IMG/VR virus record: IMGVR_UViG_3300044638_007036
Span: 18,096 to 82,095 of that record
Source of the DNA: a virus
Length of the DNA: 64,000 nucleotides
Reading direction: 5' to 3' (one strand)
Shown here: piece by piece, positions 39,302 to 61,428 of the stretch
Layout: each line of letters begins with the position of its first letter
Numbering within the stretch: the stretch's first letter is position 1
Position numbers and translations under genes: made by a program
The notes under the pieces: model-generated
What the model was told of the DNA's origin: nothing
Seen by the model: only the letters and a program-made list of their open reading frames with translations
Database searches by the model: none

Positions 39302-40366
39302 ATGGGTAAGAAGATAAGCAAAGAAGAACTCTCTAATGAACAAATCGAACAATTAATCGAAGAGTTTGCTAATCTTACTGAAGAAGAAAGGCAAAAGCGT
39401 CTACTAGGTAAAGGTGCATACAAGTCAGCTTATGAAATACCCGGAAAAGACTTTGTAATAAAGAAGCCACACTATACCAGCGAAGCAATCAACGACATGG
39501 CTAGAGAATACGGAGTTAATAAAAGACTACTAGATGAAGTGGATTTAGAACCTCCCATACTTGTTACTCGTAAAAATGAACTTGGAGAAAGAGATCCGTT
39601 CCACATTCAAAGACGAGTAGCTCCTTTAAACGACGAACTACGAGAGACTATTACAAATGATCCTAAACTTAAATCATTTAAGGAAGAAGAAGATTTCCTT
39701 TCTCAGCTAATGAAGAAGTCAGACGCAGCTAGAACTAGGGCTCTTAATGAAAACGATTTAGTAGCTGCAAAAAACTATGCAAAAGACTACCAAGATGCTT
39801 ATAGCAAACTTCAACAAGTAACTAATGCAAAAATAGAAAGAAGAAATAATCTTTCCCAACCAGCAATGGAGCTTATCGATAAAGTTAGTGAGGGTATTGA
39901 AAAGGCTAATCTTAGAGGTGCAGATATCCACGAAGGAAACATCACCAAGAAAGGTAGCGTCTTCGATCTAGGATCGTGGGTTGACTACATTGATGATGAC
40001 GCTAAAAGTAAGGGTCTTTCTAAGATGAGATCAAACATCGTAAAAAAAACCATCTCAGAAGCAAAAAAACCAACCAAGTTTGGCATATATAGAGCCCTCA
40101 TTCCTCTTGTCGCAAAAGGAGCTTTGGCTGGAGCTACGGGATTAGCCTCTTTAGCAGCAGAAGCTTCTGATGCTACAGAAGAAGGAAGTTCTATTGAAGA
40201 AGCAGCTATGGAGAGAGAAAAGCAAGATCGTAAGTTTCGCAATACCGTAGGACAAGATACTTATAATGCATCGCAAAAATTATTAAGAAGTATTGGTCCT
40301 AAAGATCTAATTGATCCAGATGCGCAAAAATCTCAATTTAGAACACTTAGAAATAAGCTTAAGTAA
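39302..40366 (+). CDS. Protein-kinase-like protein with a coiled-coil insertion and hydrophobic/basic C-terminus
   Basis: Gly loop 'LLGKGAYKSAYE', 'FVIKK', catalytic loop 'ADIHEGNI', 'VFDLG'. Confidence 0.75.
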   Translation: MGKKISKEELSNEQIEQLIEEFANLTEEERQKRLLGKGAYKSAYEIPGKDFVIKKPHYTSEAINDMAREYGVNKRLLDEVDLEPPILVTRKNELGERDPFHIQRRVAPLNDELRETITNDPKLKSFKEEEDFLSQLMKKSDAARTRALNENDLVAAKNYAKDYQDAYSKLQQVTNAKIERRNNLSQPAMELIDKVSEGIEKANLRGADIHEGNITKKGSVFDLGSWVDYIDDDAKSKGLSKMRSNIVKKTISEAKKPTKFGIYRALIPLVAKGALAGATGLASLAAEASDATEEGSSIEEAAMEREKQDRKFRNTVGQDTYNASQKLLRSIGPKDLIDPDAQKSQFRTLRNKLK

Positions 40367-40377
40367 TCTATGCACTA
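40364..40377 (+). repeat. Direct repeat copy 2 (TAATCTATGCACTA)
   Basis: Begins at the kinase stop codon; identical to 41546-41559. Confidence 0.8.
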
Positions 40378-40389
40378 TAAAGGAATGGC

Positions 40390-41334
40390 ATGAGAGTATC
40401 TAGAAATAAAGTACCGTTTAAGCCACAAGAATTTGAAAAAAATTATTCTCCATCTGAAAAAGATATTTCTCATATGGAAAGTCTTGCCAAGCAAAATAAG
40501 CTAGACGAATTAAATGATTTTATAAATAATAAAATGGTTGGAGCGGAATTAGACTCCAATGCTCCCGGAATACCAACTAGAGACTTCCTAACTGAAGCAC
40601 TTTCAAAATCAATAAGAAAAAGACAACCAGAGTTGGCTAATCTATCAGCAGAACAAAAACTTAACTATTTTAAAGATCAAGTATATCCGGGAGTTGATGA
40701 ATTTAGAAAAAAAATGGGATTGTCCAGTTTAAAATTAAAAGCAATTCCATGGGTTGGTAGTGAATACAATTATGAAACTGGAGAATTAAACTATGATGAT
40801 AGATATAAAAATGACCCTATGCAAGAGGGAACTATGCTGCACGAACTTGCTCATTCTGCGGATCACGCATTCCAAGATCAAGCACAAAGAGAATCTCTTA
40901 TAGATCATTATAGAAATATAGCTGTTTTTGATGGCGAACGTCCTGAACATCCAAAAAATAATAATCATCAAGAATTTAAAAATTCCCAGTTAGGAAGAGA
41001 AATAATAAATGATTATATTAAAAAATTGCCTAAATTAAAGAAGTTAGATAGTGGTCAAAGCCGTACGACAAATTCAGAAATTGATGGTTGGATGAATAAA
41101 GGGTATTCTAAGATTAAAAGAATGCCAAATTTTGAGGACTATGATTGGAAATCGGGAGATTTTAACTCAGATGTAATTCAAAATCCAGTAGATAAATATA
41201 AGCAGATTGGAACAGATCATCACTCAGGTAGAGCATTTTCTTTAGATAACTTCATTAACTTTGCAAAAGGTGGTCTTAAGGATGTTGTTCAAAATGAGAA
41301 TAGATTTAAAAAATTAAGAAGTAAACTAACATAA
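40390..41334 (+). CDS. HEXXH Zn metallopeptidase-like protein, paralog of 59459-60628
   Basis: 'GTMLHELAHSADH'; colinear similarity to the post-portal protein. Confidence 0.7.
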   Translation: MRVSRNKVPFKPQEFEKNYSPSEKDISHMESLAKQNKLDELNDFINNKMVGAELDSNAPGIPTRDFLTEALSKSIRKRQPELANLSAEQKLNYFKDQVYPGVDEFRKKMGLSSLKLKAIPWVGSEYNYETGELNYDDRYKNDPMQEGTMLHELAHSADHAFQDQAQRESLIDHYRNIAVFDGERPEHPKNNNHQEFKNSQLGREIINDYIKKLPKLKKLDSGQSRTTNSEIDGWMNKGYSKIKRMPNFEDYDWKSGDFNSDVIQNPVDKYKQIGTDHHSGRAFSLDNFINFAKGGLKDVVQNENRFKKLRSKLT

Positions 41335-41354
41335 ATACCAATTTGTAAGAATTA

Positions 41355-41546
41355 CTATATAGTCTTTCTTACAAGTAGCTCTAGTAGTCGCAATTCAATC
41401 TCTAGCTCTTCCAAATTTATCACCATATACTTTGCTAATACCATTAGCCTATATTCGTCAGGTACAGAGTCCATCTCTCTTTCTAGACGATTCTGGAGCG
41501 TTTGGAGATGTGGGTGTTCTTGTAAAAATAGTTTTAGTTCTTCCAT
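41355..41546 (-). CDS. Small helical hypothetical protein
   Basis: ORF convergent on 40390; start abuts repeat copy 3. Confidence 0.55.
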   Translation of the reverse strand: MEELKLFLQEHPHLQTLQNRLEREMDSVPDEYRLMVLAKYMVINLEELEIELRLLELLVRKTI

Positions 41547-41559
41547 AATCTATGCACTA
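41546..41559 (+). repeat. Direct repeat copy 3 (TAATCTATGCACTA)
   Basis: Identical to 40364-40377. Confidence 0.8.
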
Positions 41560-41865
41560 GCTTTGATACACTCCAACCACTACACTTAAAATTACTAAAA
41601 ATAATACGGCTTCAGATATACTCATGTCTACTCACTCCTTCGAGAATAGTCCTCGCCAAGAGGCGAGCCATGAAATTTATTTCACAATATAAATTTCCTT
41701 ACAGTACTTCTATAAATGTCCAACTACCTACTACCGTGTAGAGATCTTCTAGAGTTTCGATACAGAAGTACCGCCATTTACTAGACAGATCACAGTAATA
41801 GAATACTAAATTTTCAGAGTATACGATACCTAAGTTATCGTTATGAGTAATGTAATACCCATGTT

Positions 41866-42633
41866 TCATTTAGTATCTCCTTTGTACAAATCAGGATTTC
41901 CCAAACTATCCCATTCCTCTTCTGATTTTTTAAGAATATCTTCTTTACTAAAAGATCTAATTGCTAAACCTTTTAAGTGGTAATTTAATTCTGCTGTTAC
42001 AGTAGGATCATCGTGATATAAATGAAAAGCTCTTGCGTTTTTCATAACTCCATACTTTAAACATTTTCCAATTTTAAAAGAAACTAAATCATCTTCTCCG
42101 CCCCATCCTTCAAAATTTTCTGGATACCCTCCTATCAGTTTATATGTCTCAGTTTTAAAACATATAACTCCCCCAGCTAAAGGTATTATGGTTGCTCTTT
42201 TTTCTTTGAATTCTGGCAAGCTAATTAGAGAATTAAAATCTAAATTCAAAATAAATTCTGTGGATTGATTTTTATTTAGATACGTAACATTTTGATGGAA
42301 GGGAGATATCGCATCATATTCTTTCAAATTTTCTATAGATTTTTCTATAGTAATTTTATTACAAATTAAATCCGAGTCTCCTAAGATTACATTTTGAAAT
42401 CCTTCTTCTATTGCTTTTTTAACAGCCACATTCAACGACCACGATTTATTAAATTTTTTAGGATTGTACAAAAATAGGGAATCTTTAATTATTTGACTTT
42501 CTCCTTGCTCTACTACGCAAAGATCAAGATTTGGAAAATTAAGCTTTATGTGCTTTTTTAAAGTTTCTAAATTTAGTAATCTTCGAACATCGCCGTTGTA
42601 TTTAAACGGTATAATATATCTAGTTTTATTCAC
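41866..42633 (-). CDS. GT-A glycosyltransferase (GT2/GT7 galactosyltransferase-like)
   Basis: 'IIPF', 'VVEQ', 'FNKSWSLN', DxD 'GDSD', 'GGYPENFEGWGGEDD', 'FHLYH'. Confidence 0.9.
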   Translation of the reverse strand: MNKTRYIIPFKYNGDVRRLLNLETLKKHIKLNFPNLDLCVVEQGESQIIKDSLFLYNPKKFNKSWSLNVAVKKAIEEGFQNVILGDSDLICNKITIEKSIENLKEYDAISPFHQNVTYLNKNQSTEFILNLDFNSLISLPEFKEKRATIIPLAGGVICFKTETYKLIGGYPENFEGWGGEDDLVSFKIGKCLKYGVMKNARAFHLYHDDPTVTAELNYHLKGLAIRSFSKEDILKKSEEEWDSLGNPDLYKGDTK

Positions 42634-42832
42634 TTAAAATCTCTTTTATTTCAGTAGTTAGTTCTTCTATAGATATAATCTCTCTCTCATCATATTTACT
42701 GAGTTTTCTAATATATCTTTCTATATCTTCTAATTTTTTTGCAGTTTTTGCAGCACTTTGAAAAAGTTCTAATTCGTCTTTATCTTCGTAAGGATCAAAC
42801 TCATATATTATTTTCATGTAAGAAGTTAGCAA
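42626..42832 (-). CDS. Hypothetical protein (start probably ATG 42817)
   Basis: ORF overlapping the GT start. Confidence 0.55.
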   Translation of the reverse strand: MLTSYMKIIYEFDPYEDKDELELFQSAAKTAKKLEDIERYIRKLSKYDEREIISIEELTTEIKEILSE

Positions 42833-42834
42833 CT

Positions 42835-42870
42835 ACCTCACAACTTAGATTTAGTAGGTATGTGACACCT
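42835..42870. repeat. Bipartite hairpin element, copy B
   Basis: ACCTCACAACTT-N10-GGTATGTGACACCT; arms identical to 45489-45537. Confidence 0.8.
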
Positions 42871-42893
42871 AAGGGTAACGCTGCGATAATTTA

Positions 42894-43298
42894 TTATACC
42901 ATATAATATCCATAAAAAAATCCCAACCAGTACTGATTATTTTTATATCCCGATTTAAAAGTATGAGTAGGAAACCATATCTTACTAAGTTGGTTAGCTA
43001 TTTTTTCAGTATATAATTCTGCGTTTAGGGCGTATCTTGCAAAATTTTTTCTCCCCATTTTTTCTATTGCTTTATAGTGATTTGATTTATGATAAATCGG
43101 ATATTTATTTTCTATGTCGTTTTTGTAATGTGCGAGTTCATGGCAAAATACTGATATAGTCTCAACATCAGTCATGTCATTACTTATTATCATCTTGCCT
43201 TTCCAGTACAAGCCACCAGTATTTTTATTAGAGATTTTTATACTACATCCATAAATTTTACAAATTTCTCTTATGTATTTTTTTAAATACTTGCTCAA
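42894..43298 (-). CDS. ImmA/IrrE-like HEXXH metallopeptidase
   Basis: 'FCHELAHY' with downstream 'AELYTEKIA'. Confidence 0.6.
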   Translation of the reverse strand: MSKYLKKYIREICKIYGCSIKISNKNTGGLYWKGKMIISNDMTDVETISVFCHELAHYKNDIENKYPIYHKSNHYKAIEKMGRKNFARYALNAELYTEKIANQLSKIWFPTHTFKSGYKNNQYWLGFFYGYYMV

Positions 43299-43528
43299 TC
43301 TCTAAATCCTTTTATAGTAAGTAAGTCCCCATCTTGAATTCCCAAATCGGGATCTAAGCAAATTGCTTTACTTTTTATAAAAAAATCAACTGGTCCGGGA
43401 ATATTAATTTCATGATGACCTATTAGTCTTAGCCCATTTAAATACACAGAGCAATCTTTCATTTCGTAATCTAGTAAGTAACTATATTTTTCCTTTTTTA
43501 AATTTATAAATTCTACGCACCAGATCAT
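43295..43528 (-). CDS. Hypothetical protein
   Basis: ATGA overlaps with both neighbours. Confidence 0.55.
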   Translation of the reverse strand: MIWCVEFINLKKEKYSYLLDYEMKDCSVYLNGLRLIGHHEINIPGPVDFFIKSKAICLDPDLGIQDGDLLTIKGFRD

Positions 43529-43788
43529 TGCATCTCCTTTTTCTTTTTTATTTCAAAAATAGTTAAATGCTTTTCAATTTCTGTTTTAGTCATTCTATAT
43601 GTATCAGGACAAGTACACTTATAGGGCATATTTAGACTTCTAGCTTTTAATTGATTTTCGTAGCATTGATCTGAAAATAGTAATTCTAACTCAGATCTCT
43701 TATGTTCTAGATCAAAGTCCACTATCTGTTCATTTGTAAGATTTACGTTTAATTCTTTTGCTATTTTTTTCTTGTTTTCAGATTTCAT
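43525..43788 (-). CDS. Hypothetical protein
   Basis: ATGA overlaps with both neighbours. Confidence 0.55.
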   Translation of the reverse strand: MKSENKKKIAKELNVNLTNEQIVDFDLEHKRSELELLFSDQCYENQLKARSLNMPYKCTCPDTYRMTKTEIEKHLTIFEIKKKKEMQ

Positions 43789-44426
43789 ATTTCAATCGTT
43801 ATGGGGTTGATTATAAGATCGGAATAAGGTATTCCACAAATGGAAGCATTTATAGTCACATAGTTCTCATAATTTGTAGATTCAAGAGAGCACCCTCTAC
43901 TTTCATGAATATGTCCGCAAACGTGTAATTTTAATTTATTAAATCTATGCTCAATATGATTAGTTAAAGTCGCACTTCCTACATGTCCTCCCGGACATTT
44001 ATCTAGTCTAAAAAATGCAGGTCCATGAGTAACTAGTATGTCTATATCGTGATCTATAGAACTCCATATACTATCTAATTCTAAATCTGGTAATCCGTAT
44101 GCCCATCTTCCAAATTCCTTAGAGTAAGGACTTCCGAATATTTTCAAACCATTTATTTCTACGTGTTCATTATTCAACAAAATAATATTATTTTCCATAC
44201 AAAGTTTTTGCAAGCTTTGTATATTTTTACTTACTCCTACTTCGTGATTTCCACAAATTAAAATCTTGTAATTAGATTCCTGAACGGCATACCATTCTAT
44301 AAAATTTCTAACCTCATCTTGTTTTCCTCTATTAGTAAAATCTCCTGCATGAATAATCATATCACAAGGAGGAATTATTAGTTGATCATGAAGTTGATGA
44401 GTATCAGAAATACAGGTTATCTTCAT
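43785..44426 (-). CDS. Calcineurin-like metallophosphoesterase
   Basis: 'ISDTH', 'HAGDFT', 'CGNHE', 'VTHGP', 'CGHIHE'. Confidence 0.92.
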   Translation of the reverse strand: MKITCISDTHQLHDQLIIPPCDMIIHAGDFTNRGKQDEVRNFIEWYAVQESNYKILICGNHEVGVSKNIQSLQKLCMENNIILLNNEHVEINGLKIFGSPYSKEFGRWAYGLPDLELDSIWSSIDHDIDILVTHGPAFFRLDKCPGGHVGSATLTNHIEHRFNKLKLHVCGHIHESRGCSLESTNYENYVTINASICGIPYSDLIINPITIEI

Positions 44427-44686
44427 TTTGTTCTTTTTGTAAATCTATGATTGTGTTTTTTTCTACAGTAGTCAGAACAATATACGACAGCTATTCCAGA
44501 TTTAGTTTCATATATATAGTACGGCAGATGTATATAGTGCTTTATAATATAGCCCCGTGGAGGAGCTAGCATTGTTGTGGTTAGCGGTGCTGAAAAAATT
44601 TTACTGCATTTTTCACATCGTACTGTATTATCTATTTTAACATTCGCATATTGATTAACAACTTTTCCATCTATATTATAACTCAT
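44423..44686 (-). CDS. Small Zn-finger protein
   Basis: CEKC...YCSDYC. Confidence 0.55.
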   Translation of the reverse strand: MSYNIDGKVVNQYANVKIDNTVRCEKCSKIFSAPLTTTMLAPPRGYIIKHYIHLPYYIYETKSGIAVVYCSDYCRKKHNHRFTKRTK

Positions 44687-44846
44687 TTACGTATGCACCT
44701 TGCTTTAATTTTGATTCCATTTTTCTCCATATCTATCAATTTAGATATAGCTTGTAAGCAGGTTGATTCAGAATTAAAAGTGGATACATTTGTACTTATA
44801 GAAGTACCTAAACTATTAATCACGATTAAATATAATAAATACTCCA

Positions 44847-45083
44847 TTATCTATCCTCACATAATTTAAAAATTCTTCCATTTACATATATCTTTTTTAA
44901 TCTAAAAACATCTTTGCTAATAAACATTTTATCGATAACTACTGACATGATAGCCATCGTTAATGCTATTCCAACTACTAAACCGTGAATAAAGTTCAAT
45001 GCCAATTTTTGTTTAACCATACTGCTATAAATGGAACTCCTAAAGTTATTATAACTTGTACAATCTGAAAAGCCAAACGCCAT
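44847..45083 (-). CDS. Small membrane protein (start probably at an internal ATG)
   Basis: TM helix 'FIHGLVVGIALTMAIMSVVI'. Confidence 0.45.
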   Translation of the reverse strand: MAFGFSDCTSYNNFRSSIYSSMVKQKLALNFIHGLVVGIALTMAIMSVVIDKMFISKDVFRLKKIYVNGRIFKLCEDR

Positions 45084-45126
45084 CTTTCATAAGCTGACAT
45101 TCGATTAAAATCTTCTTTTATAAATT

Positions 45127-45315
45127 TTATAATTTTTTCTGAGAGATGCATTTTGCTAAATTCTTGTAATCACCAAGAAATCCACCATCTAAGCACTTTG
45201 TATAGTATTGTTGACACTTAAGTTGCCTCTCTTCTGTGAATTGTATCAGGGTTGATGAATTTGCTCCTGCTCCATTTAATTGACAAAGTAATGCTATAGT
45301 TTGAATGATTTCCAT
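45127..45315 (-). CDS. Small Cys-containing hypothetical protein
   Basis: RBS GGGAG. Confidence 0.55.
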   Translation of the reverse strand: MEIIQTIALLCQLNGAGANSSTLIQFTEERQLKCQQYYTKCLDGGFLGDYKNLAKCISQKKL

Positions 45316-45488
45316 ATTACTCCCTAATTCTTAAGGCTCTAATAAAAAAAACACATGCTGTTATACCAAACCCAATTCCAACAATTGGAAATCCCCTGAC
45401 TGTCATAAAGACATTTAGAAGAGTGAATAAATAACCTATAACTGTTAATTCTAATTTTTTTTGTATCATATGTTAAAAGCGAGCCGCC

Positions 45489-45537
45489 ACCTCACAACTT
45501 CCCAGAAATCTATAACATCTAGGGGTATGTGACACCT
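45489..45537. repeat. Bipartite hairpin element, copy A
   Basis: ACCTCACAACTT-N23-GGTATGTGACACCT. Confidence 0.8.
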
Positions 45538-45564
45538 CGGAGGAGGGAGTACTAAAACGTGGTA

Positions 45565-45756
45565 TCAAAGTACTCTTAAACTAACTCCAAAGCGGGAGGC
45601 TACGCTTCGGACAGTTTTTAAAGGTCGATGAATAATAGCTGCGATATTTTTTGCTGACATTTTTCCTGCATTATTTACAATGAATTCAACAGTTCCAAAA
45701 GTTAATGGCTTATTTAGTTTAGTCCATTTTCCATTTACCTTAGACAATTTCTTCAT
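45565..45756 (-). CDS. Small basic HTH DNA-binding protein
   Basis: 'EFIVNNAGKMSAKNIAAIIHRPLKTVRSVASRFGVSL'; RBS AGGAG; extended -10 (TGCTATAAT) upstream near 45780. Confidence 0.65.
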   Translation of the reverse strand: MKKLSKVNGKWTKLNKPLTFGTVEFIVNNAGKMSAKNIAAIIHRPLKTVRSVASRFGVSLRVL

Positions 45757-45808
45757 AAAACTCCTTTATTTATTAATTTATTATAGCACGAGATTTATTT
45801 AAATAAAA

Positions 45809-46948
45809 TTATTTTTTATTAAATAATTGGTCTATAAGTTTTTCATATCCTTTTATATTTTCAGGATTGTCTATTAAATAACGACTTGCAAACTTCCTAC
45901 TTCTTTCTAAGTACTTATTATTAGGATACTCTAAATTATCAAAATTTCGTATCACGTACTCAAGATGTTCAACCGCAATTGTTGCGTTATTTTCAGGATA
46001 ATACCATCCTAAGTCTTTCATCATAGAACTATTATGAACTACGGGATATCCTAGCCAAGCAGCATCCAAGTATAGATAATTTAAATCCCAATGAACTTGG
46101 TGAGATAAAACAATATCCGTATGGGTTTTTAAACTCCAAACAATTGGATATCTACTTTCAAAAAACATTTTGTTATTTTTATAGCAGTCCATTCGGTTTA
46201 CGAATTGAACAAAATCTCTTTTCTTTTTAATTCTATCTGTTCCAAACATGTTTACTTTGTCAATTGAATCAGGATTTCTATTATAAAGTTTTTCAGATAT
46301 TACAATAGGAATAATACAAGTTTTTCCCATATTTAAATTAGGCTCCATCGTTGATATTCTTTTTTTAGAATTAACCGGAGCGTAGTTTGCTGTTTTATTT
46401 TTTTGCTCATACTTTTGTATGTCTGGTTCCATGAATTTAGGACTCCATACATAGGGAGCCTCGAAAACAGGACATTTATGTATTTGTTCAAAAAAATGCT
46501 TATCTCGTTCATAGAAATGAGGACTTACCCATATAGCATCTAAATTATTGTTTTTATCATATAGTCCAGTTGATTTATCGTCAAATAATACTTTTTCATT
46601 AAAAATACTTAATTCAGATCCCAATACTTGAAATACTATTTTTTTATTTAAATTTTCTAATTCTGTAAATTCTTTTTTAGATAAATTTCCATGACACAAA
46701 ACAATTACGTCACATAAATTTTCAGCTTCTTTTACTGAGATTATATTTTTAGAATAAGGTTCCCAAAAAGTATTTTTGTAATCTTCGGGATTTATATTAG
46801 CAGAATTAATAATGTATGAATTATTTACATTCTTACATTTTTTATATAGTTCTTGTAGCAATATTACATTTTGACGAATTCCATTACTAAATGGAGAGTC
46901 TTTTTTTGGATCTTTTAAAATTATAGTAATTCCTATATTAATCTTCAT
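45809..46948 (-). CDS. DUF2827-like putative glycosyltransferase-related protein
   Basis: 'NIGITI...FSNGIRQN', 'PYVWSP.F', 'EPNLNMGKT..IP', 'DIVLSHQ...LNYLYLD..W.GYPVVHNS'. Confidence 0.75.
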   Translation of the reverse strand: MKINIGITIILKDPKKDSPFSNGIRQNVILLQELYKKCKNVNNSYIINSANINPEDYKNTFWEPYSKNIISVKEAENLCDVIVLCHGNLSKKEFTELENLNKKIVFQVLGSELSIFNEKVLFDDKSTGLYDKNNNLDAIWVSPHFYERDKHFFEQIHKCPVFEAPYVWSPKFMEPDIQKYEQKNKTANYAPVNSKKRISTMEPNLNMGKTCIIPIVISEKLYNRNPDSIDKVNMFGTDRIKKKRDFVQFVNRMDCYKNNKMFFESRYPIVWSLKTHTDIVLSHQVHWDLNYLYLDAAWLGYPVVHNSSMMKDLGWYYPENNATIAVEHLEYVIRNFDNLEYPNNKYLERSRKFASRYLIDNPENIKGYEKLIDQLFNKK

Positions 46949-52853: not shown

Positions 52854-52870
52854 CTACTCTCCTGTTGAAT

Positions 52871-53899: not shown

Positions 53900-54273
53900 A
53901 CAGGATTGCTCCTAATTTTCTCTTGAAGTTGCGTTGCTACTTTTTCAATTTCATCTCGTGCTATAGTAGTTTTAGTTTTTAGGTCTTCTACCTCTTCTTT
54001 AGATCTCTCCGTATCTTTTTCTAAAAAAGAAAGTGCATTATCTAAAGATCTCCTGACAATTTCGCAGAATTCAAATACCGTTTCCGCTTCCCCTCTATTT
54101 AAAGCAACATAATTTGCATTGGTTGGTTTTATCTTTTCATAGAGATCGTTAAAAGCTATGGCTAATTCTTGATCTTTTCCATTTACTGCGTTATTTTCAG
54201 AGGCTTTTAAAATTTCTAAAAGATAATTGCGTTGATTGTCATTCAAATATAATTTCATTCGTAGATTCTCCAT
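53896..54273 (-). CDS. Hypothetical helical protein
   Basis: ORF overlapping its neighbours. Confidence 0.6.
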   Translation of the reverse strand: MENLRMKLYLNDNQRNYLLEILKASENNAVNGKDQELAIAFNDLYEKIKPTNANYVALNRGEAETVFEFCEIVRRSLDNALSFLEKDTERSKEEVEDLKTKTTIARDEIEKVATQLQEKIRSNPV

Positions 54274-54517
54274 TTTCTTTTTTGTTTAATCTCTCATATG
54301 CTTCATTTGATAATCTTAGTCTAATCGACAAGCCGTTATCTTGTATTGATAAATAAAAAACGCCCACCCCTGCCCAAAAGAATCGTTGTTCTTTTTTTAA
54401 GATTTCCACCATCTCATACCCAGTTACCTTAAGTATAGCATCTATATCGTAAACTCCCAAACCTGTTTTTTTGGCAATTTTTTTAGCAATTCGATTCATT
54501 TTTGGAAGTTTTTCCAT
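54239..54517 (-). CDS. HU/IHF-like DNA-binding protein (shortened arm)
   Basis: 'IAKKIAKKTGL...DIDAIL...L', 'AGVGVF', 'IRLRLS...ERLN'. Confidence 0.6.
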   Translation of the reverse strand: MEKLPKMNRIAKKIAKKTGLGVYDIDAILKVTGYEMVEILKKEQRFFWAGVGVFYLSIQDNGLSIRLRLSNEAYERLNKKENGESTNEIIFE

Positions 54518-54927
54518 TAGTATATCCAATGCCTTTTTCCTGTTGACTTTATTGGTCTAGTATCTACGTGCACAAATCCCTTTTTTCTACCGTCTCCAAC
54601 ATTATTAAATTTATTAAAACAAATCTCATACAGTAAATCTAAATCATCTAAAGTTTTTCTTGAAGGAGAAGGATCTGCAGCTAGTCCTTTCATGTGAGAA
54701 CTATTTTCCTTTCCTCCTATTTTTTTATTATGAGCAGGACATCTGTATCCAGAGTTTATTACTATACCACTACCATATTCTACTCTAACTTCTTCTAATT
54801 TGTTTACTAATTCCTCATCAATAAACTGATCCTTATCATTACAAGCCTTACAAGGACACTCAAATTCCGAAGAATTGAAGTGATCTGTCAATTGCTTGTT
54901 TTCTCCTTTTTTGAATGTTATAATCAT
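54517..54927 (-). CDS. Peptidase M15A-family endolysin
   Basis: 'HFNSSEFECPC', 'INSGYRCPAHN', 'SSHMKGLAAD', 'FVHVDTR'. Confidence 0.9.
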   Translation of the reverse strand: MIITFKKGENKQLTDHFNSSEFECPCKACNDKDQFIDEELVNKLEEVRVEYGSGIVINSGYRCPAHNKKIGGKENSSHMKGLAADPSPSRKTLDDLDLLYEICFNKFNNVGDGRKKGFVHVDTRPIKSTGKRHWIY

Positions 54928-54942
54928 AAAACACCTCTTTCG

Positions 54943-54952
54943 TATATTTGTT
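54943..54952 (-). promoter_or_regulatory. Putative late-promoter motif AACAAATATA (minus strand)
   Basis: + strand tatatttgtt, directly upstream of the endolysin RBS GAGG. Confidence 0.65.
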
Positions 54953-55192
54953 TATTTATTATGCAAAAGAAGCATTGCGTCACCAATAATTTTAATTATT
55001 TAGTAATATTTTTATGTCAAACTCGTATAAATTTAAATTATACTATTATGCGTATCGTATACAATCGAGAGTACTTTTCTATACGTTTCGCAGCTCGCTT
55101 CAGGCTCGCTGCGTAAAATTGCGTGTACTATATAGTAATATTATACATGCTTTTTTTAAAAAACACCAAATAATATTTTTATGTGCTATAAT

Positions 55193-55202
55193 AACAAATA
55201 TA
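55193..55202 (+). promoter_or_regulatory. Putative late-promoter motif AACAAATATA
   Basis: Heads the terminase operon; preceded by TGTGCTATAAT. Confidence 0.6.
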
Positions 55203-55291
55203 TTATGAGACAAAGTAAGTTCGAGTGTTCCACTTGGAATAAATGTACACAAGCGATTAACACAATGTCTCTTTTAACATAGGTAAAAAAA

Positions 55292-55576
55292 ATGAAAAGT
55301 TATGATTTTGTATTCATACTAGTATGTCTTTTTGTCCTAAGAATTGTATTCTTTTCAGCATCTTACGCTGATGCTGCATGTTTATTTTCCGTATTTGCTT
55401 TTTTGACAGCTAATGAAATTCTAAAAGTTAAGAAAATTTCTAACCAAGTTCTAGAAAAAGTCACAAAAAATGAAGACACTACAAATGCTAGAATTGTAGA
55501 ACTTAGTAACGAAATGGTGAAAATCAGAAATGCAGCCGAAGGTATTAAAGCTGCAGTTAACTTTGTTAAAAAATAA
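55292..55576 (+). CDS. Two-TM + coiled-coil membrane protein (holin candidate)
   Basis: Hydrophobic N-terminal half; divergent from the endolysin. Confidence 0.5.
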   Translation: MKSYDFVFILVCLFVLRIVFFSASYADAACLFSVFAFLTANEILKVKKISNQVLEKVTKNEDTTNARIVELSNEMVKIRNAAEGIKAAVNFVKK

Positions 55577-55578
55577 TT

Positions 55579-55995
55579 ATGAAATTATTATCAGCCGATG
55601 AAGTTAGAGATATTCTAAGTCAGAATGAAGAATTGAAAAAATATTCTGAAAAATTAACTACTCTTAACACTAAACTTCAAAAAGAATTAGAACAAACAAA
55701 AGATAAGTTAGCTCATTTGGAAGAAATAGCTAAGTTTTCTCAAAATCCTATCGCAGTTGGATCTAATGAAGAGGAATTGTGTAAGCTTGAAATAAATAGA
55801 CTGTATCAATCAGCAAAAACCGGACCATTAGAATTTACTGAAGTTAAAGCTTTTGAAATATATGTGAAATCTTTAATGTTAATTAAAGGCAAGTCCGTAA
55901 CTGAAGAAAAAAAGAATAAAAAAGAGCAAAGTTTAAGCCACGATCAGTTATTGCAACTTGCTTTACAGGTCGTAGATGATTCAAACGAACAATAA
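55579..55995 (+). CDS. Coiled-coil protein, possible terminase small subunit
   Basis: Overlaps the start of TerL; positional inference. Confidence 0.45.
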   Translation: MKLLSADEVRDILSQNEELKKYSEKLTTLNTKLQKELEQTKDKLAHLEEIAKFSQNPIAVGSNEEELCKLEINRLYQSAKTGPLEFTEVKAFEIYVKSLMLIKGKSVTEEKKNKKEQSLSHDQLLQLALQVVDDSNEQ

Positions 55996-57409
55996 TACAC
56001 TACAAATAACTCCGCAGCAAGCTAGAGAAATCCTTTGGAGAAAAGGAAAAGTAGCTGATTTTCTATTAGATAGTAATCAAAAAATCCTTAGAGATCAATT
56101 AAAATCTACAAAAAGAAAAACCCACGTAGCCTTGTTTTCTCGACAATCTGGTAAGAGTTATGGAGCTTTAGGGATTGCCACAGAAGAATTGCTTACAAGA
56201 AAAAACATTACAATATGTTATGTAGCTCCTCGTCTTAAGCAAGGCAAGAAAATTGTAAAATCCACTTTTGATGAAATATTTAAATCATGTCCTCAGGATA
56301 TAAAACCCAAATTTGACAGAGATTCGTCTACTTATGTATTTCCGTCAACTAAAAGTAAACTAGAATTATATGGATTTAACGCAGAAGAAATAGAATCAGC
56401 AAGGGGACCTAAAGCTCATATGATTATTGTAGATGAGTGTGGGTTTATGAATGATTTAAAATATGGTCTAAAGTCCGTTCTGTACCCGAAGTTAAACTCA
56501 ACAAAGGGATCAATGTTGTTGATTTCAACTTTGCCAAGATCTCAAGGTCATGAGTTTTGGTCTATAGTAAAAGAAGCGGAGTATAAAGAAACTCTTTTAA
56601 ATAGAAATATATATCAATGCCCTAGATATACACAGGAAGATATTGATGGTTTTGCTGAAGAAGTTGGGGGATATGATTCTGTAGATTTTAAAAGAGAGTA
56701 CTTAAATATAATGATAACTGACGAAGATCATGCAGTTATTCCCGAAGCTAATGATGAAATTCTTGCTAAAATAGTAAAGCAGTATAGTAGACCAGCATAC
56801 TATGATTGTTATGTTTCAATGGATATTGGGGTTAAGGACTTAACTGGTGTATTATATGCTTATTATGATTTTATTACAGGAAAAGTTGTGATAGAAGACG
56901 AAGCTACTTTTAAAGGAAAAAGTTTTACTACAGCGAATTTAGCAGCTTCCATAAAGAAAACGGAAGAATCGTTGTGGAATTTAAAAAAACCTTTTTTAAG
57001 AGTTTCTGATAATAACAACTTGATTTTATTAAATGATTTAAGTATTGACTATGGGATTACTTTTATTCCTACGGCAAAAGATAATAAACATGCTTGGTTA
57101 AACCAGATAAGAATTTTAATAGCAGAAGAGCGTATTGTTATTAATCCTAAGTGTAAGCAGTTGATTTTTCATTTAAAAAATGCAACTTGGAATAAAAATA
57201 AAACAGATTACGAGCGATCTCTAGATGGAGGTCACTATGATTTGATTGATGCGCTGGCATATTTGATACGTAACATAGCGTTTACACGTAATCCATATCC
57301 TAAAGGCTATGGTATGACTTATGGCGATTCGGCATTTAGATTAGGCGAAAGTGGAAAATCTAGATTTGAAGAACATTTACTTAATATGTTTAGTTATAAA
57401 AAGAATTAA
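55976..57409 (+). CDS. terL: Terminase large subunit
   Basis: Walker A 'SRQSGKS', Walker B 'IIVDECG', 'ISTL', nuclease 'SMDIG', 'HYDLIDALAY'. Confidence 0.93.
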   Translation: MIQTNNNTLQITPQQAREILWRKGKVADFLLDSNQKILRDQLKSTKRKTHVALFSRQSGKSYGALGIATEELLTRKNITICYVAPRLKQGKKIVKSTFDEIFKSCPQDIKPKFDRDSSTYVFPSTKSKLELYGFNAEEIESARGPKAHMIIVDECGFMNDLKYGLKSVLYPKLNSTKGSMLLISTLPRSQGHEFWSIVKEAEYKETLLNRNIYQCPRYTQEDIDGFAEEVGGYDSVDFKREYLNIMITDEDHAVIPEANDEILAKIVKQYSRPAYYDCYVSMDIGVKDLTGVLYAYYDFITGKVVIEDEATFKGKSFTTANLAASIKKTEESLWNLKKPFLRVSDNNNLILLNDLSIDYGITFIPTAKDNKHAWLNQIRILIAEERIVINPKCKQLIFHLKNATWNKNKTDYERSLDGGHYDLIDALAYLIRNIAFTRNPYPKGYGMTYGDSAFRLGESGKSRFEEHLLNMFSYKKN

Positions 57410-57418
57410 ACAAATAAT
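57409..57418 (+). promoter_or_regulatory. Putative late-promoter motif AACAAAT
   Basis: In the 22-bp gap between terL and portal. Confidence 0.6.
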
Positions 57419-57431
57419 AATAGAGGTTTAA

Positions 57432-59456
57432 ATGGCTAAACAAACATACTTTGCAGCTAGAGAAGGAAAAGAAACGGCTTCCGTTCTATTGGAAAAAGCT
57501 TCCGATTGGAAATCTACCCTAACTACAAACGGTTATTTAGAAAAATTAAAAACATGCTGGGCTACCTATCATGGGGCTTATTTTACAGATATGGCTTCTG
57601 GTCATACTATTACATTTGCTGGGGAACAGGGAGAATTAGCTCAACTACCCGTAAATCATATTCGTAATTTAGCGCAACATATGTATGTTATGACAACGTC
57701 TAGTAGACCATCTATGGAAGCTAGAGCTGCCAATACTGATTATAAATCTAGCGCACAAGTTACTTTAGCTAATGGTTTATTAGACTATTACATGCGTGAA
57801 AAAAGATTAGAGCGTTACATTAATAAAGCCGTAGAACTAAGTATTGTTTTAGGTGCTGGATATGTGAAAGTGGAATGGGATGCTACTTCAGGTAAAGTAA
57901 TCGAAGAAGATGAAGAAACTGGAGATAAAGTATTTGAGGGGGATATAAAATTCACAAACGTATCCCCTTTTGACGTAGTTTTTGATGTGAACAGAGAAGA
58001 CAATAATCATGATTGGGTTCTAATAAGAACTTACAAAAATAAATTCGATTTAGCTGCTAAATACCCAGAATTAGAAGATGAGATTTTAGCTCTAGATACT
58101 AAGAGTGCAAAAGATAGGTATTCTCTTCAAATATTTAGAAAATCAGATTCCGATGAAGTAGAAGTATGGACGATGTATCATAAAAAAACAGATGCGATGC
58201 CAGAAGGTAGAGAGCTAGTTTTTCTATCAGATGACATTGTTATACATGATCAAGTATTACCATATAGAAGAATTCCAGTATTTAGAATGAGTCCTAATGA
58301 AATTCTAGGTACGGCTTTTGGTTATTCTAATTTATTTGACCTACTACCTTTGCAAGAAGGTATTAATCATCTTTACTCATCTATTATGTCTAACAATATA
58401 GCTTTCGCTACTCAAAACTTATTTGTGAGATCTGGTTCTAACATCGACATTACAAATTTAGGTGGTGGATTAAATATTATTCAAGGAACAGAAAAACCTG
58501 AACCATTGAATCTACTAGGAACTTCCCAAGAAACATTTAATTTTCTTCAAATGTTGGAAAGTAAAATGGAGCAATTATCGGGAGTTAATTCCGTGACAAG
58601 AGGTACTCCAGATCCTGCAGCTAATTTACGTTCTGGAAATTCTTTAGCTTTAGTGCAATCTATGGCTATTCAGTTTCAATCTGGACTTCAAAATCAATAT
58701 GTTCAACTAGTAGAGGATCTGGGAGTAGCTATTCTTGAAATTTTACAAGATTACGCAACTGCTCCAAGAGTAGCTTCTATTATTGGCATAAACAATAAAC
58801 AATACTTAGTTCAATTTAAAGGAACTGATATTGCGGATATTAATAGAGTTATTGTAGATGTAGGAAATCCTTTAGCTAGAACAACTGCAGGTCGAGTACA
58901 AATGGCAGAACAGCTAATGCAAATGAAACCAGAAGAATTTTCAATTCAACAATATGCTCAAGTTATTAATACAGGAAGAATTGACGGAATGATGGAAAGT
59001 CCAGTAGATCAAACTAACTTAATTCAAATGGAAAATGAAAGACTTATTCAAGGAATTTCAGTTCCTGCATTAGTTATCGATGATCATAAAGAACATATTT
59101 TAAGACACCGAACTATTTTAAACGATATTGATATTCGTATGGATGAAGAAAAAGCTTCCGTTATATACGCTCATATTCAAGAACATATTGAATTTGCTAG
59201 AAGTACCGATCCTGCTGTATTAATTATGACAAATCAACAACAATTGCCTCCTGCTCCAGCACCTGCTCCAACAGAAGCACCTGCTCCAGAAACAGCTAAT
59301 CAACCGCCACAAAATGCAGCAGGACAATCTCCTATAGCGCAAGTAGCAGAAGCATCTGAACAATCAATGCAACAAGAAATGCCGGGAGTACCTAAACCAG
59401 CTACTCCACCAGCACCTTTTGAAAACTTACCTACAACCACTATTCCGAATCAATAA
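57432..59456 (+). CDS. Portal protein (P22-like) with Pro-rich tail
   Basis: Follows terL; 'NHIRN..', 'GAGYVKVEWD', 'VSPFDVVFD', 'LSGVNSVTRG'; size and synteny. Confidence 0.85.
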   Translation: MAKQTYFAAREGKETASVLLEKASDWKSTLTTNGYLEKLKTCWATYHGAYFTDMASGHTITFAGEQGELAQLPVNHIRNLAQHMYVMTTSSRPSMEARAANTDYKSSAQVTLANGLLDYYMREKRLERYINKAVELSIVLGAGYVKVEWDATSGKVIEEDEETGDKVFEGDIKFTNVSPFDVVFDVNREDNNHDWVLIRTYKNKFDLAAKYPELEDEILALDTKSAKDRYSLQIFRKSDSDEVEVWTMYHKKTDAMPEGRELVFLSDDIVIHDQVLPYRRIPVFRMSPNEILGTAFGYSNLFDLLPLQEGINHLYSSIMSNNIAFATQNLFVRSGSNIDITNLGGGLNIIQGTEKPEPLNLLGTSQETFNFLQMLESKMEQLSGVNSVTRGTPDPAANLRSGNSLALVQSMAIQFQSGLQNQYVQLVEDLGVAILEILQDYATAPRVASIIGINNKQYLVQFKGTDIADINRVIVDVGNPLARTTAGRVQMAEQLMQMKPEEFSIQQYAQVINTGRIDGMMESPVDQTNLIQMENERLIQGISVPALVIDDHKEHILRHRTILNDIDIRMDEEKASVIYAHIQEHIEFARSTDPAVLIMTNQQQLPPAPAPAPTEAPAPETANQPPQNAAGQSPIAQVAEASEQSMQQEMPGVPKPATPPAPFENLPTTTIPNQ

Positions 59457-59458
59457 AT

Positions 59459-60628
59459 ATGAAAGAAGGCAGAATAAAAGAAATACTACAGGAGATACGG
59501 AGATTAAAAGATAATCCCGAAGCTATAGATAAGTTTTTAAATACTGAATTAGAAGAAAAATTTAAAAAAACATTACAGAGATCTCAAAGAGCAGATCCTT
59601 TAATGAAGCAGTTGCCCTCTAAATATAAAGCTAGAGCAACAGATGATTTTTTGCATGATATACTAGGACAAATAGCTACGGAAGAACTTGAAGGTATCGA
59701 TAAATTAAAACCTGAAGATCAATATAAAAAAATACTTGAAACTGCTTATCCTGAAATAAAAGATCTACAAAAAAGTATAAATTATAATCCAAACATCTAT
59801 GTAAAAGATCTTCCCCCTAATATAGCTGGAAGTTGGCAACCTTCTAAGGGTATTGTTTTAAGTAAAAAATTTGCGGAAGATCCCTCAAGAAAGCTAACTA
59901 TGAGAGGAACTGTTTTACATGAAGGTGGACATGGTATTGATGATACAGCAGCTAAACTAAAAGAACTTTTAGATGAAGTAGATTCTAGAGCTGAAAGACC
60001 AAAAGTTTTACAGTTTAGAGATTTAAATCAATATGATCCTAATAAGACAATTTTTCAAAATATGAAAAACTCTGAACTATATAGGTATTTTGAAAATGTT
60101 CGAGATAAATTAGATAAGTTTAAAGATAAAAATCCAGAAAAAATAGAAAGTTTAATAGATCAAGAGGCTATTAAAAAATTTGAAAGTTTACCCTACCCAG
60201 ATGATTTTGAACATTCATCCTATGCGAACAAGACCCCATTAGAATTACAAGATTTACATACTAGAGGACATTTTTTTAATAGAAATTTTGCAAAAAAAAA
60301 TGTATTAAAAAGCATTAAAGATGGAATAAAAGGTGTTAAAAGTTTAGGGGTTTCTATGCTTCCAGCAGCAGCCTTGGGAGCTATTGCAGCTTATTCTCCA
60401 GATACAATGGCTGGAACTATTGCTAGAACAGGAACTAAGGTTTTAGATGAGGGAGATCCAACTTCTTTTCTTTTTCCTTCAGAAGCTGGAGAAGGGGAAG
60501 AACAAGAATTAAAGAAAATGATTCAAGAAAAAGAAGTTGAAGAAGCTCAAAAAATAAAAAAAGAAAGCAATCTTACAGATGAACAAATGCGTAGATGGTC
60601 TAAAATAAAGGATCAATTAAAAAGGTAG
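59459..60628 (+). CDS. Post-portal HEXXH Zn metallopeptidase-like protein
   Basis: 'GTVLHEGGHGIDD'; paralog of 40390; hydrophobic segment and basic C-terminal helix. Confidence 0.7.
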   Translation: MKEGRIKEILQEIRRLKDNPEAIDKFLNTELEEKFKKTLQRSQRADPLMKQLPSKYKARATDDFLHDILGQIATEELEGIDKLKPEDQYKKILETAYPEIKDLQKSINYNPNIYVKDLPPNIAGSWQPSKGIVLSKKFAEDPSRKLTMRGTVLHEGGHGIDDTAAKLKELLDEVDSRAERPKVLQFRDLNQYDPNKTIFQNMKNSELYRYFENVRDKLDKFKDKNPEKIESLIDQEAIKKFESLPYPDDFEHSSYANKTPLELQDLHTRGHFFNRNFAKKNVLKSIKDGIKGVKSLGVSMLPAAALGAIAAYSPDTMAGTIARTGTKVLDEGDPTSFLFPSEAGEGEEQELKKMIQEKEVEEAQKIKKESNLTDEQMRRWSKIKDQLKR

Positions 60629-60630
60629 TT

Positions 60631-61428
60631 ATGAAAAAAACAAAATCATTTGAAGAAGTGCTAAAAGAACAAGTAGATAAAACTGATATTATTGACATGA
60701 ATAAACAGTTAGAATCTACAATACCAAAAACTTTGTCGGATGAGTCAACAGAAGAATTTTTAAAAAAAAGACAGTTACAGCAAGAAATGAGAAAACAATA
60801 TCTTCCTACTCCAGCAAAAGATCAGGTAGCACTGTATGAACAAATTCAGAAACAAAGTTCAAGTCCTGTAGACGTATCGCAAGAAAAAAACATTACAAAA
60901 ATAGAAGATATTATAAAACAAGCAGATCCAGCAAGTTTAGAAGACAGGGCTACAGTAGAAAAATTAGAAAGATTAAAAAGAAAACAAGGTAATTTGACAA
61001 AAAAAAATTTACCAAAACTGCCAAAAATACTTAAAAAAGGTGGTAGATTTGGGGCACTTGCTTCCGCTTTAGGACTTGGAACTTCCCTACTAGCTCCAAA
61101 AAGTAAAGCTGCAGAAATAGTTAGTAAGATTGGAGAAGCTGCTGAAAAAGTAGATCCAGCTACTTATTTACAACAAGGTATATCAGATTTCGATAAAAAA
61201 TTTCAACAAATGCAAGATGAGGCTAACCGTAAAAAATTAGAAAAACAACTCATGGAAAGAGAAGTTGGAGAAGTTGTAAAGACTACTGGAGGCGAGCCTG
61301 ATATCCGTCCATCTAAGTCTGAGAGTATGCTTGGAGAAAAAGAAAGTAAAGACATTGAAGACATGTCTAATATATTAGATTATGAGGATTATTTAAAACA
61401 AAGAAAAAGAAAATTCGGCTACGAATAA
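60631..61428 (+). CDS. Charged protein sharing a hydrophobic module with 59459
   Basis: 'LGLGTSLLAPKSKAAEI...KVDPATYL' vs 'LGAIAAYSPDTMAGTI...EGDPTSFL'. Confidence 0.65.
   Translation: MKKTKSFEEVLKEQVDKTDIIDMNKQLESTIPKTLSDESTEEFLKKRQLQQEMRKQYLPTPAKDQVALYEQIQKQSSSPVDVSQEKNITKIEDIIKQADPASLEDRATVEKLERLKRKQGNLTKKNLPKLPKILKKGGRFGALASALGLGTSLLAPKSKAAEIVSKIGEAAEKVDPATYLQQGISDFDKKFQQMQDEANRKKLEKQLMEREVGEVVKTTGGEPDIRPSKSESMLGEKESKDIEDMSNILDYEDYLKQRKRKFGYE

Follow-up and report, generated by a model that had tools for sequence, protein, structure and literature searches.

What connects two fast-changing genes between the conserved portal and scaffold-like genes of a phage with two further genes that lie 17-18 kb from the portal, among the replication genes? 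The question arises in a stretch of 64,000 bases (the window; bases 18096-82095 of the 82,095-base virus record IMGVR_UViG_3300044638_007036, which is estimated to be 98% complete) and concerns four genes on the + strand, the products of which are called P0001 (gene at 39302), P0002 (40390), P0003 (59459) and P0004 (60631), with coordinates given as window positions unless marked genome. The source is an uncultured, podovirus-like phage of 82 kb; the lineage is regarded as uncultured because the closest cultured phage by portal among 50,697 phage records is merely 27% identical. A preliminary description had proposed from the sequence alone that the four genes form a polymorphic effector system carried in the virion, in which variable enzymatic domains share C-terminal elements. 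Comparison with homologues indicates that the four genes are one lineage-specific modular protein system, in which the elements shared at the C-terminus are homologous modules that recombination has joined to N-terminal domains of different kinds. That the proteins are taken up by the head of the phage and delivered to the next host by injection is the explanation put forward here, tentatively.

A C-terminal module behind different N-terminal domains

The module spans about 90-110 residues and consists of a basic patch, a Gly/Ala-rich and moderately hydrophobic helix, an acidic stretch with a helical spacer, and a strongly basic amphipathic terminus. As judged from alignments it stands behind a zincin-like domain of several subtypes, a kinase-like domain without a C-lobe, or a non-enzymatic coil, and its hydrophobic and acidic portion is the best-conserved shared part. 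The elements on which the preliminary description was built were all recovered, namely the four open reading frames (ORFs) with the boundaries and lengths given in Table 1, the ends QFRTLRNKLK, RFKKLRSKLT and RWSKIKDQLKR directly before the stop codon in three translations, the three Gly/Ala hydrophobic segments LIPLVAKGALAGATGLASLAA, MLPAAALGAIAAYSP and FGALASALGLGTSLLAP, the continuation P...A..I...DP..[FY]L common to P0003 and P0004, and a HEXXH motif in both proteins for which it had been named (HELAH in P0002, HEGGH in P0003).

Homology of the module was detected with the region in isolation. Residues 286-389 of P0003 searched alone against 5.8 billion proteins gave nine matches (E 4.5e-53 to 8e-12), four of which are of the P0004 type (E 7e-14 to 8e-12), compared with six proteins found by a search with full-length P0003. 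Between P0003 and P0004 themselves the likeness is confined to the hydrophobic segment and the part downstream of it (blastp E 0.033). Pairwise similarity of P0001 to P0003 or P0004 was not found, and an hhalign comparison of the P0001 family with the P0003 and P0004 families gave an alignment of the module only (probability 65%, E 5.9e-5). The combinations in which the parts occur bear out the proposal of one modular system, with P0011 joining a short-form N-domain (HELEH) to a P0003-type module and the same last 13 residues as P0003, P0070 joining a HEGAH zincin to a P0001-type module, P0069 joining an unrelated N-terminus to a P0001-type module, and P0024 joining a zincin to a DEGDP module and a GY-type tail. 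Likewise, the P0004-type proteins P0012 and P0014-16, with the end ...YEDYLKKKKRQLGY, carry a hydrophobic/DEGDP/EAGEGE block nearer to that of P0003 than to the block of P0004 itself, and the same short zincin N-domain precedes at least three versions of the hydrophobic block and three kinds of end. The enzymatic variety had been overstated; a zincin-like class in several subtypes and a kinase-like class, together with non-enzymatic coils, are all that was found.

The charge pattern around the hydrophobic segment is regular across the family. Among 92 distinct family proteins 64 have a segment with a 17-residue Kyte-Doolittle mean of at least 1.2, and 60 of these 64 are flanked by a net positive charge over the preceding 15 residues (mean +3.7) and a net negative charge over the following 30 (mean -3.0). 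Hydrophobicity lies mostly under that of constitutive membrane anchors, the most hydrophobic module versions reaching a 17-residue mean of 1.8-1.96 and one interchangeable version being weak, with means of 0.8-1.3; ejection proteins that are soluble at first and insert later have been described in the same terms (PMC8954989). The last 12 residues have a net charge of at least +3 in 73 of the 92 family proteins compared with 100 of 522 ORFs from five genomes, a background that includes family members. In AlphaFold2 (AF2) monomer models the N-domains are confident and the module is disordered, with a predicted local distance difference test score (pLDDT) below 50, which is compatible with a segment in need of a partner or a membrane. 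Module profiles recognised the two cassette proteins and P0001 in this genome, the two cassette proteins in each of the related genomes G001 and G002, a single one in G003 and no protein in G004.

The zincin-like label of P0003 relies on the conserved HEXXH motif together with weak fold matches of its model. Mean pLDDT is 83.9, with ten-residue block means mostly above 90 as far as about residue 290, below 50 at 301-344 and about 80 for the terminal helices, and the model places three strands (113-135) before the HEXXH helix. In an exhaustive fold alignment small zincins came out on top (SPRTN Z 4.9, jannalysin 4.6, selecase 4.0, abylysin 3.8, Wss1 3.5), values that are weak and belong to one class, and a Foldseek match at E <= 0.001 was absent. 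The long-form rows inspected of alignment A5 have an Asp three residues past the motif (HExxHxxD). P0002 and P0003 are paralogues across the whole HEXXH domain (blastp E 9e-5, 262 columns), and P0002-type homologues comprise P0025, P0032, P0038, P0039, P0041, P0043, P0046, P0050, P0053 and P0054. Portal-adjacent zincins occur in short and long forms with kinship at the profile level (hhalign probability 98.2%, E 4.4e-14, the module contributing part of the score), and since their HEXXH regions align the two forms were ruled out as unrelated domains. A profile search for the zincin gave just 43 proteins at E <= 0.001 among 1.84 billion representatives, so that the families are small. Against PDB sequences the long-zincin profile and the module profile gave rows at chance level alone, and single-protein scans of viral contigs with P0003 and P0001 gave no match. 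A specific kinship to the peptidase region of the N4 virion RNA polymerase was dropped, as the motif alone aligned (13 columns, probability 0.95%) in what was a weak single-sequence test. One relative, L011, has a portal-adjacent zincin (4157-5287) with HETGGH, a HEXXXH motif, in place of HEXXH. This was set aside as proof of a dead enzyme because HEXXXH peptidases are described in a study of phage proteins (PMC5512222).

The kinase identity proposed for P0001 holds at the level of the fold. A kinase-superfamily signature is present (Gly-rich loop, VxK lysine, helix-C Glu, D-x-x-x-x-N loop and DxG), and the motifs GKGAYKSAY, FVIKK (the VIK Lys), MAREY, ADIHEGN (DIHxGN) and FDLG are kept in 11 of 11 aligned kinase-bearing rows (alignment A4). 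The model matched APH(2'')-IVa (Foldseek probability 0.99, E 1.4e-3) and the NleH1 kinase domain (0.99), with E from 1.4e-3 to 7e-3, and resembles aminoglycoside phosphotransferases, NleH kinase domains and protein kinases more generally (probability up to 0.99). A long two-helix insert occupies residues 109-201, and the usual C-lobe is taken to be absent because there is little sequence between the DLG motif and the module. P0001 has 15 homologues besides itself, 12 of which were aligned with it (13 rows). In this alignment the module is the most conserved region, with invariant columns at P268, K272, G280 and A282 to D290 within the block LP..(A/G)KG...A.G.ASLAAEASD..EGS..EE; residues 267-302 have AF2 pLDDT below 50. 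The end F..LR.KLK ranks with this block as best conserved. An alignment-based scan for the kinase family found none in viral contigs and a single 1.1-kb fragment in metagenome contigs.

P0004 is largely unstructured since the ESM Atlas's own model has a pLDDT of 0.48, and a search of the ESM Atlas with this protein gave nothing usable (best feature score 0.81, TM below 0.5). Its C-terminal block occurs as a stand-alone 90-amino acid (aa) protein in the related loci L004 and L013. In a Silvanigrella phage (CP017838.1; L029, 8316-9326) a 336-aa ORF two genes past a portal of 27% identity has a Gly/Ala hydrophobic N-terminus and a KRYGYK end, and since this end occurs beside so distant a portal the GY-type end seems much older than the rest of the cassette.

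The basic end of P0001, P0002 and P0003 had been viewed as a loading or ejection address, and the idea of a fixed address did not survive comparison. Over the genome's 124 called ORFs (26,370 aa) the motif [FW]..[LI][RKM].[KQRN]L occurs seven times, and five of the seven lie within the last 16 residues of a protein compared with 0.30 expected. The motif was defined after three of the five terminal cases had been seen, and the two independent cases are not significant alone. These two are very basic ORFs of 60 aa (genome 6822-7004) and 83 aa (genome 7140-7391) in the virion block outside the window, which have the motif at or near the C-terminus and whose orthologues in G001-G003 keep it. The expectation that homologues would keep the tail was borne out in nine of ten representatives of the P0002 type and 12 of 13 aligned rows of the P0001 family, and failed for the cassette zincins. 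In relatives the latter end in a basic helix of this kind, in a GY-type tail (KRKKRLGYE) or in a merely lysine-rich one (KNYKKKK, KKKNLK), so that three kinds of basic tail interchange among portal-adjacent zincins; P0004 is itself of the GY type. Long-form zincins from the profile search end in related helices such as RKWSKIKNLLEK and RAFNKLKKLLEE. The ORF at genome 7388 starts with the same kind of basic peptide. Because it occurs also at or near N-termini the motif is best described as a short portable peptide and not strictly as a C-terminal address.

Three observations concern carriers of this peptide. A DUF5872 match is split over the overlapping ORFs 6976-7143 and 7140-7391 (L002, genome coordinates; profile positions 1-39 and 54-114), which suggests a frameshift or a split gene, and the second piece (genome 7140-7391) ends with the basic tail motif. 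Pro/Gln-rich ORFs in L027 (943-1404, 153 aa) and L044 (338-964, 208 aa) have a KFQxLRxx peptide near the N-terminus. Of these, the first is the upstream neighbour of the P0002-like zincin in G002 and the second the downstream neighbour of a kinase homologue.

A variable cassette in the head-gene block and an accessory island

Comparison with relatives indicates that the conserved portal and scaffold genes enclose a hypervariable cassette prone to recombination, which consists of the genes of P0003 and P0004; P0003 starts 3 nt past the portal stop. A portal search gave 22 related viral loci, and gene order was read in those extending beyond the portal. The portal is followed in turn by a zincin (283-376 aa), one P0004-type protein or two with the end K(R/K)K(L/F/M)GY, a scaffold-like protein, a small protein and the capsid protein. 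A zincin occupies the slot in 17 of 18 informative loci, 16 with HEXXH (among them HELKH, HELEH, HESGH, HEFGH, HEYGH and HELRH) and L011 with HEXXXH. A HEXXH protein is absent from the slot in L018, the portal of which is 85% identical, and L024 and L025 (portal identity 50%) have a different layout. Across 11 loci the identity to relatives is 77-94% for the portal, 69-93% for the scaffold-like protein and 83-98% for the capsid protein compared with undetectable to 55% over partial length for cassette gene 1 and undetectable to 83%, again over partial length, for cassette gene 2. In this respect the slot is hypervariable, as would be expected of an effector locus. The portal-to-scaffold DNA and the P0003 protein had no match in DNA and protein searches of the 50,697 phage records.

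The junctions are visible at the level of DNA. Compared with the closest relative, L006, the DNA is 86% identical up to 59464, six bases into the P0003 gene, similarity is absent over 59465-61032 (1,568 bases, the whole P0003 gene included) and returns at 61033, where the basic patch and hydrophobic helix of the P0004 module are encoded. A recombination junction therefore falls at the module. Of the four relatives against which breakpoints were mapped (L006, L012, L014 and L020), L006 alone has the right junction at the module start.

Other changes occur close by. The 106-aa gene at 62583-62903 between the scaffold-like and capsid genes is a second replaceable slot, holding an unrelated protein of 136-138 aa in L006 and L016, and the DNA similarity to L006 is broken over 62581-62905. 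In L021 (5131-5901) and L022 (6795-7565) a 256-aa ORF lies between cassette gene 2 and the scaffold-like gene, the start of which, judging by eye, resembles that of a GIY-YIG homing endonuclease.

The genes of P0001 and P0002 lie on the + strand between two blocks of - strand genes and behind a 1.24-kb stretch poor in ORFs. No such kinase was found in five relatives' records, one of them 95% complete, and a P0002-type protein was found in one of the five (G002, with a tail ending EAFRKLRDRLA, in a similar + strand islet); on these counts the second locus is considered accessory. The stretch ahead of the island (38060-39300) holds short ORFs only (63 and 53 aa), has a G+C content above that of its neighbours and a G-run near 39135, and contains no tRNA gene. 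The element ATCTATGCACTA occurs in three exact copies that bracket the island genes. Copy 1 (39206-39217) lies 96 nt before P0001, copy 2 (40366-40377) starts at the final base of the P0001 stop codon and reaches to 13 nt before the P0002 start, and copy 3 (41548-41559) abuts the start of a - strand ORF (41355-41546). No further copy with fewer than two mismatches was found in the window. The islet genes of G002 are preceded by a similar TATGCAC element and then by AACAAAT. The repeat may be a promoter or a cassette boundary.

Both loci had been described as lying downstream of a late motif, AACAAAT, and the two positions stand (Table 1). Window-wide there is no overall enrichment, with 34 occurrences compared with 26.2 ± 4.7 expected and 34 reached by 6 of 100 shuffles. 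Within 60 nt upstream the motif precedes 7 of 45 + strand genes and 2 of 80 - strand genes, among them other virion genes, as well as both islet genes of G002, and 16 of the 18 relatives examined have it upstream of their portal gene. Late co-expression of both loci is plausible from this distribution.

Table 1. Positions of the four genes, their module parts and flanking features in the window
Feature	Coordinates	Strand	Details
AACAAAT before P0001	39275..39281	+	Candidate late-gene element, 27 nt upstream of the gene
P0001	39302..40366	+	354 aa; protein-kinase-like domain without canonical C-lobe, then C-terminal module; AF2 mean pLDDT 76.3
P0001 module	40061..40219	+	aa 254-306; basic patch, Gly/Ala helix ALIPLVAKGALAGATGLASLAA, acidic stretch EASDATEEGSSIEEAAMERE
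P0001 basic terminal helix	40328..40363	+	KSQFRTLRNKLK; pattern kept in aligned rows F..[LI][RK].K[LI]K
P0002	40390..41334	+	314 aa; zincin-like (HELAH), paralogue of P0003 (blastp), without hydrophobic module, basic-helix end
P0002 basic terminal helix	41296..41331	+	ENRFKKLRSKLT; RFKTLRKKLS, RFKNLRKKLS in P0002-type representatives
AACAAAT before portal	57409..57415	+	23 nt upstream of the gene
Portal protein	57432..59456	+	Left conserved flank of cassette; Pfam P22_portal 6e-9, SU10_portal 7.5e-9, phrog_156 3e-23
P0003	59459..60628	+	389 aa; first cassette gene; zincin-like domain of the long form (aa 1-292, HEGGHGID), module, coiled spacer, basic helix
P0003 module	60293..60502	+	aa 279-348; basic patch, SLGVSMLPAAALGAIAAYSP, DEGDPTSFLFP, EAGEGEE; alignments A1 and A2
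P0003 basic terminal helix	60578..60625	+	Ending MRRWSKIKDQLKR; AF2 helix 374-388
P0004	60631..61428	+	265 aa; cassette gene 2; N-terminal coil half, hydrophobic module, GY-type basic tail; homologues P0012, P0014-16
P0004 module	61009..61170	+	aa 127-180; LPKLPKILKKGGR, FGALASALGLGTSLLAP, KSKAAEIVSKIGEAAEKVDPATYL; alignment A2
P0004 C-terminal block	61288..61425	+	GGEPD...YEDYLKQRKRKFGYE (GY-type tail); alignment A1
Scaffold-like protein	61510..62451	+	Acidic coiled coil; right conserved flank; basic aromatic end KIKAKDFFNSLRG

Possible roles of the module

The same module stands on several proteins, two of them encoded in a fast-changing slot between portal and scaffold genes, and for this reason the proteins are probably head-loaded and injected cargo, an explanation that is held tentatively. 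The proteins would be made together with the head proteins and would co-assemble into the procapsid, with the basic terminus contacting the acidic scaffold, the capsid interior or the portal in the manner of a scaffold C-terminus. They would exit with the DNA at the next infection, where the hydrophobic helix with its charge dipole (positive before, negative after) may insert into the cytoplasmic membrane or oligomerise there, and the enzyme domain would then act on host proteins. Hypervariability within a conserved frame, the accessory kinase and the types of domain speak for host-directed cargo. A more ambitious version, possible if rather doubtful, is that of a natural portable C-terminal 'load and deliver' module, in which the basic terminus would dock in the procapsid and the Gly/Ala dipole helix would place enzymes in or across the membrane of the next host, with cassettes swapped by recombination at the module and with no need of a MuF domain, a portal fusion or protease processing.

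A number of points weigh against head loading and injection. Packaging itself we infer wholly, as the lineage is uncultured and the best portal among the cultured phages is so distant. The near-constant zincin in cassette gene 1 is as expected of a core assembly enzyme, and the charge dipole is equally expected of an ordinary N-in/C-out membrane anchor made in the infected cell, so that both features speak for rival explanations. The fold matches of the zincin are weak, and the terminal helix differs between orthologues and is present at or near N-termini as well, which disfavours a single sequence-specific address. Module carriers number two or three in each of the three genomes where the profiles gave matches, and none in G004, which is no large arsenal, and the usual candidates for ejection proteins (1177, 860 and 717 aa) are found elsewhere in the virion block.

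The positive-inside pattern fitted by 60 of the 64 hydrophobic segments, the top Kyte-Doolittle means and the fact that a packaging signal was not obtained would suit late, unpackaged proteins whose N-in/C-out anchor holds the zincin or kinase at the host inner membrane face for envelope remodelling, superinfection exclusion or lysis control. Such anchors are unlikely given that interchangeable module versions on the same N-domain are weakly hydrophobic, that the P0002 family has the tail without a hydrophobic segment, and that the portal-scaffold position is constant in the relatives examined, which in terms of phage gene order is unusual for membrane proteins of the host-cell phase. Prohead proteases do usually lie between portal and scaffold, and lambda protease C and the scaffold Nu3 share a C-terminus. 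In keeping with this the zincin might be a head-maturation protease and the second gene an auxiliary scaffold or core protein, with basic termini that bind the capsid interior and with the island genes as duplicated offshoots. The occurrence of a zincin in all but one of the informative loci, the basic aromatic peptide at the end of the scaffold-like protein and the finding of no other protease among 26 proteins scanned with PHROGs are consistent with head assembly, but the zincin diverges beyond detection while the capsid protein is 98% and the scaffold 93% identical, which is the opposite of co-evolution with substrates, and the slot of L018 lacks a HEXXH protein beside a portal that is 85% identical. 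We know of no prohead protease that is a metalloprotease, and assembly factors are regarded as quite improbable.

More improbable still is that the proteins are packaged but essential parts of the DNA-ejection conduit, in which the Gly/Ala helices would form a membrane channel and the high variability would come from adaptation to the envelopes of hosts. The segments are rich in Gly/Ala and have small-xxx-small spacing, relatives conserve the two-gene architecture and a GY-tailed Gly/Ala protein lies two genes past the portal even at 27% portal identity; in addition, basic C-terminal residues of T7 gp16 are reported to be required for infectivity (PMC8954989). At least the kinase-like carrier is dispensable since it was not found in the five relatives' records, enzyme domains would be unexpected in channel subunits, and larger candidate ejection proteins lie elsewhere in the virion block. 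The possibility that nothing more than composition is shared by unrelated lysine-rich or alanine-rich ends might draw on the post hoc definition of the tail motif, on the commonness of basic C-termini (100 of the 522 background ORFs at +3 or above) and on the two independent terminal cases that are not significant alone. For the hydrophobic module this is already contradicted by the E-values of the region-only search (1e-12 to 1e-23), and invariant columns across families, a DNA recombination breakpoint at the module and the tails kept in homologues make such coincidence highly improbable throughout.

If the proteins are packaged, the module would represent a third design for loading enzymes into the heads of tailed phages beside T4-like trimmed N-terminal tags and MuF or portal fusions, being C-terminal, uncleaved and bipartite and occurring in a phage whose scaffold is separate and in which no head protease was recognised. 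It could offer a short natural tag for loading cargo into capsids as well as two defined junctions for recombination, at the portal stop and at the module start. Two small enzyme families without earlier annotation, the zincin and the C-lobe-less kinase, are candidate effectors for host takeover or against host defence. Should the proteins not be packaged, the cassette remains unusual as a hypervariable island within an otherwise very conserved block of head genes.

Relation to known systems and genome setting

The C-terminal module is previously undescribed, the nearest concepts being T4 capsid targeting, scaffold-tail loading, MuF toxins and polyvalent proteins. In T4 a short shared capsid-targeting peptide loads unrelated proteins, the internal proteins and Alt, into the prohead, from where they are injected with the DNA, and the loci are hypervariable. 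The prohead protease cuts off the T4 signal, which is N-terminal, whereas the shared part here lies at the C-terminus and is much longer, and a PHROGs scan of 26 proteins, a part of the proteome, identified no prohead protease. Loading by scaffold tails offers another likeness, in that the scaffold-like protein and the four proteins here all end in basic amphipathic peptides; the tails are however of at least three kinds. The scaffold of 80alpha and CpmB of SaPI1 share C-termini. In P22 particles the basic C-terminal helix of the scaffold suffices to bring fused cargo inside the procapsid, as reported (PMC12129825, PMC13433545).

MuF toxins of temperate phages, 20% of which carry a metallopeptidase, are presumed to be packaged in the head (Jamet et al. 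2017, PMC5576092). As with P0003, but not P0001 or P0002, their gene lies directly downstream of the portal gene, and a conserved head-associated part is joined to a variable enzyme. No MuF domain was found here, as the preliminary description had noted; a Pfam scan of the four proteins at E <= 0.1 gave neither MuF (PF04233, PF06152) nor any other family, although a very remote relation may have escaped it. The polarity is also the reverse, the enzyme being at the N-terminus and the conserved module at the C-terminus; that module contains a hydrophobic helix with a charge dipole, an immunity gene was not recognised and there are no temperate signs in the annotated parts. With PHROGs included, no significant family was found for P0001-P0004, the sole weak match being phrog_4301 for P0001 (8e-4).

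Phage polyvalent proteins have 2-15 domains per polypeptide, and their packaging and injection are predicted (Iyer et al. 2017, PMC5512222). Their domains include, in the part of that study drawn on here, zincins with an Asp three residues past HEXXH, HEXXXH variants and kinases without the C-terminal subdomain, and HExxHxxD, one HEXXXH variant and a C-lobe-less kinase are all found in the present family; stand-alone versions and cassette-like variation are mentioned there also. In contrast, the proteins here have one folded N-domain each in the AF2 models, and the same part of that study does not describe the C-terminal module. The internal virion proteins of podoviruses, T7 gp14-16 and P22 gp7, gp16 and gp20, have hydrophobic segments and are soluble before ejection and inserted in the membrane afterwards (PMC8954989). 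A hydrophobic segment and a positively charged C-terminus are common to these and the proteins described here, but genes for podovirus ejection proteins follow tail genes and their products have no zincin or kinase domains, and homology of the four proteins to them was not detected with PHROGs.

The virion block consists of the + strand genes that begin at 55292, run to the end of the window and continue over the record's first 31.8 kb, and includes a large terminase (phrog_2, 3e-27), a major head protein (phrog_14242, 1e-9) and tail fibre-like proteins. The blocks on the - strand encode a family A DNA polymerase, a DnaB-like helicase, a ribonucleotide reductase and AAA ATPases, and no tRNA gene was found in the window. 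In the head block the order is terminase, portal, the two cassette genes, scaffold-like protein and major capsid protein, and the tabulated relatives agree with it. The scaffold-like protein has no significant Pfam or PHROG match, so the label 'scaffold' is drawn from position, composition and length; its end, KAKDFFxSL(R/G)G, is kept in relatives. Two large proteins of the virion block are candidate podovirus internal or ejection proteins. One of 860 aa (6747-9329) has a LysM domain and transglycosylase or endolysin-like matches, and the other of 717 aa (11297-13450) has long uncharged Gly/Ala-rich stretches (aa 97-207).

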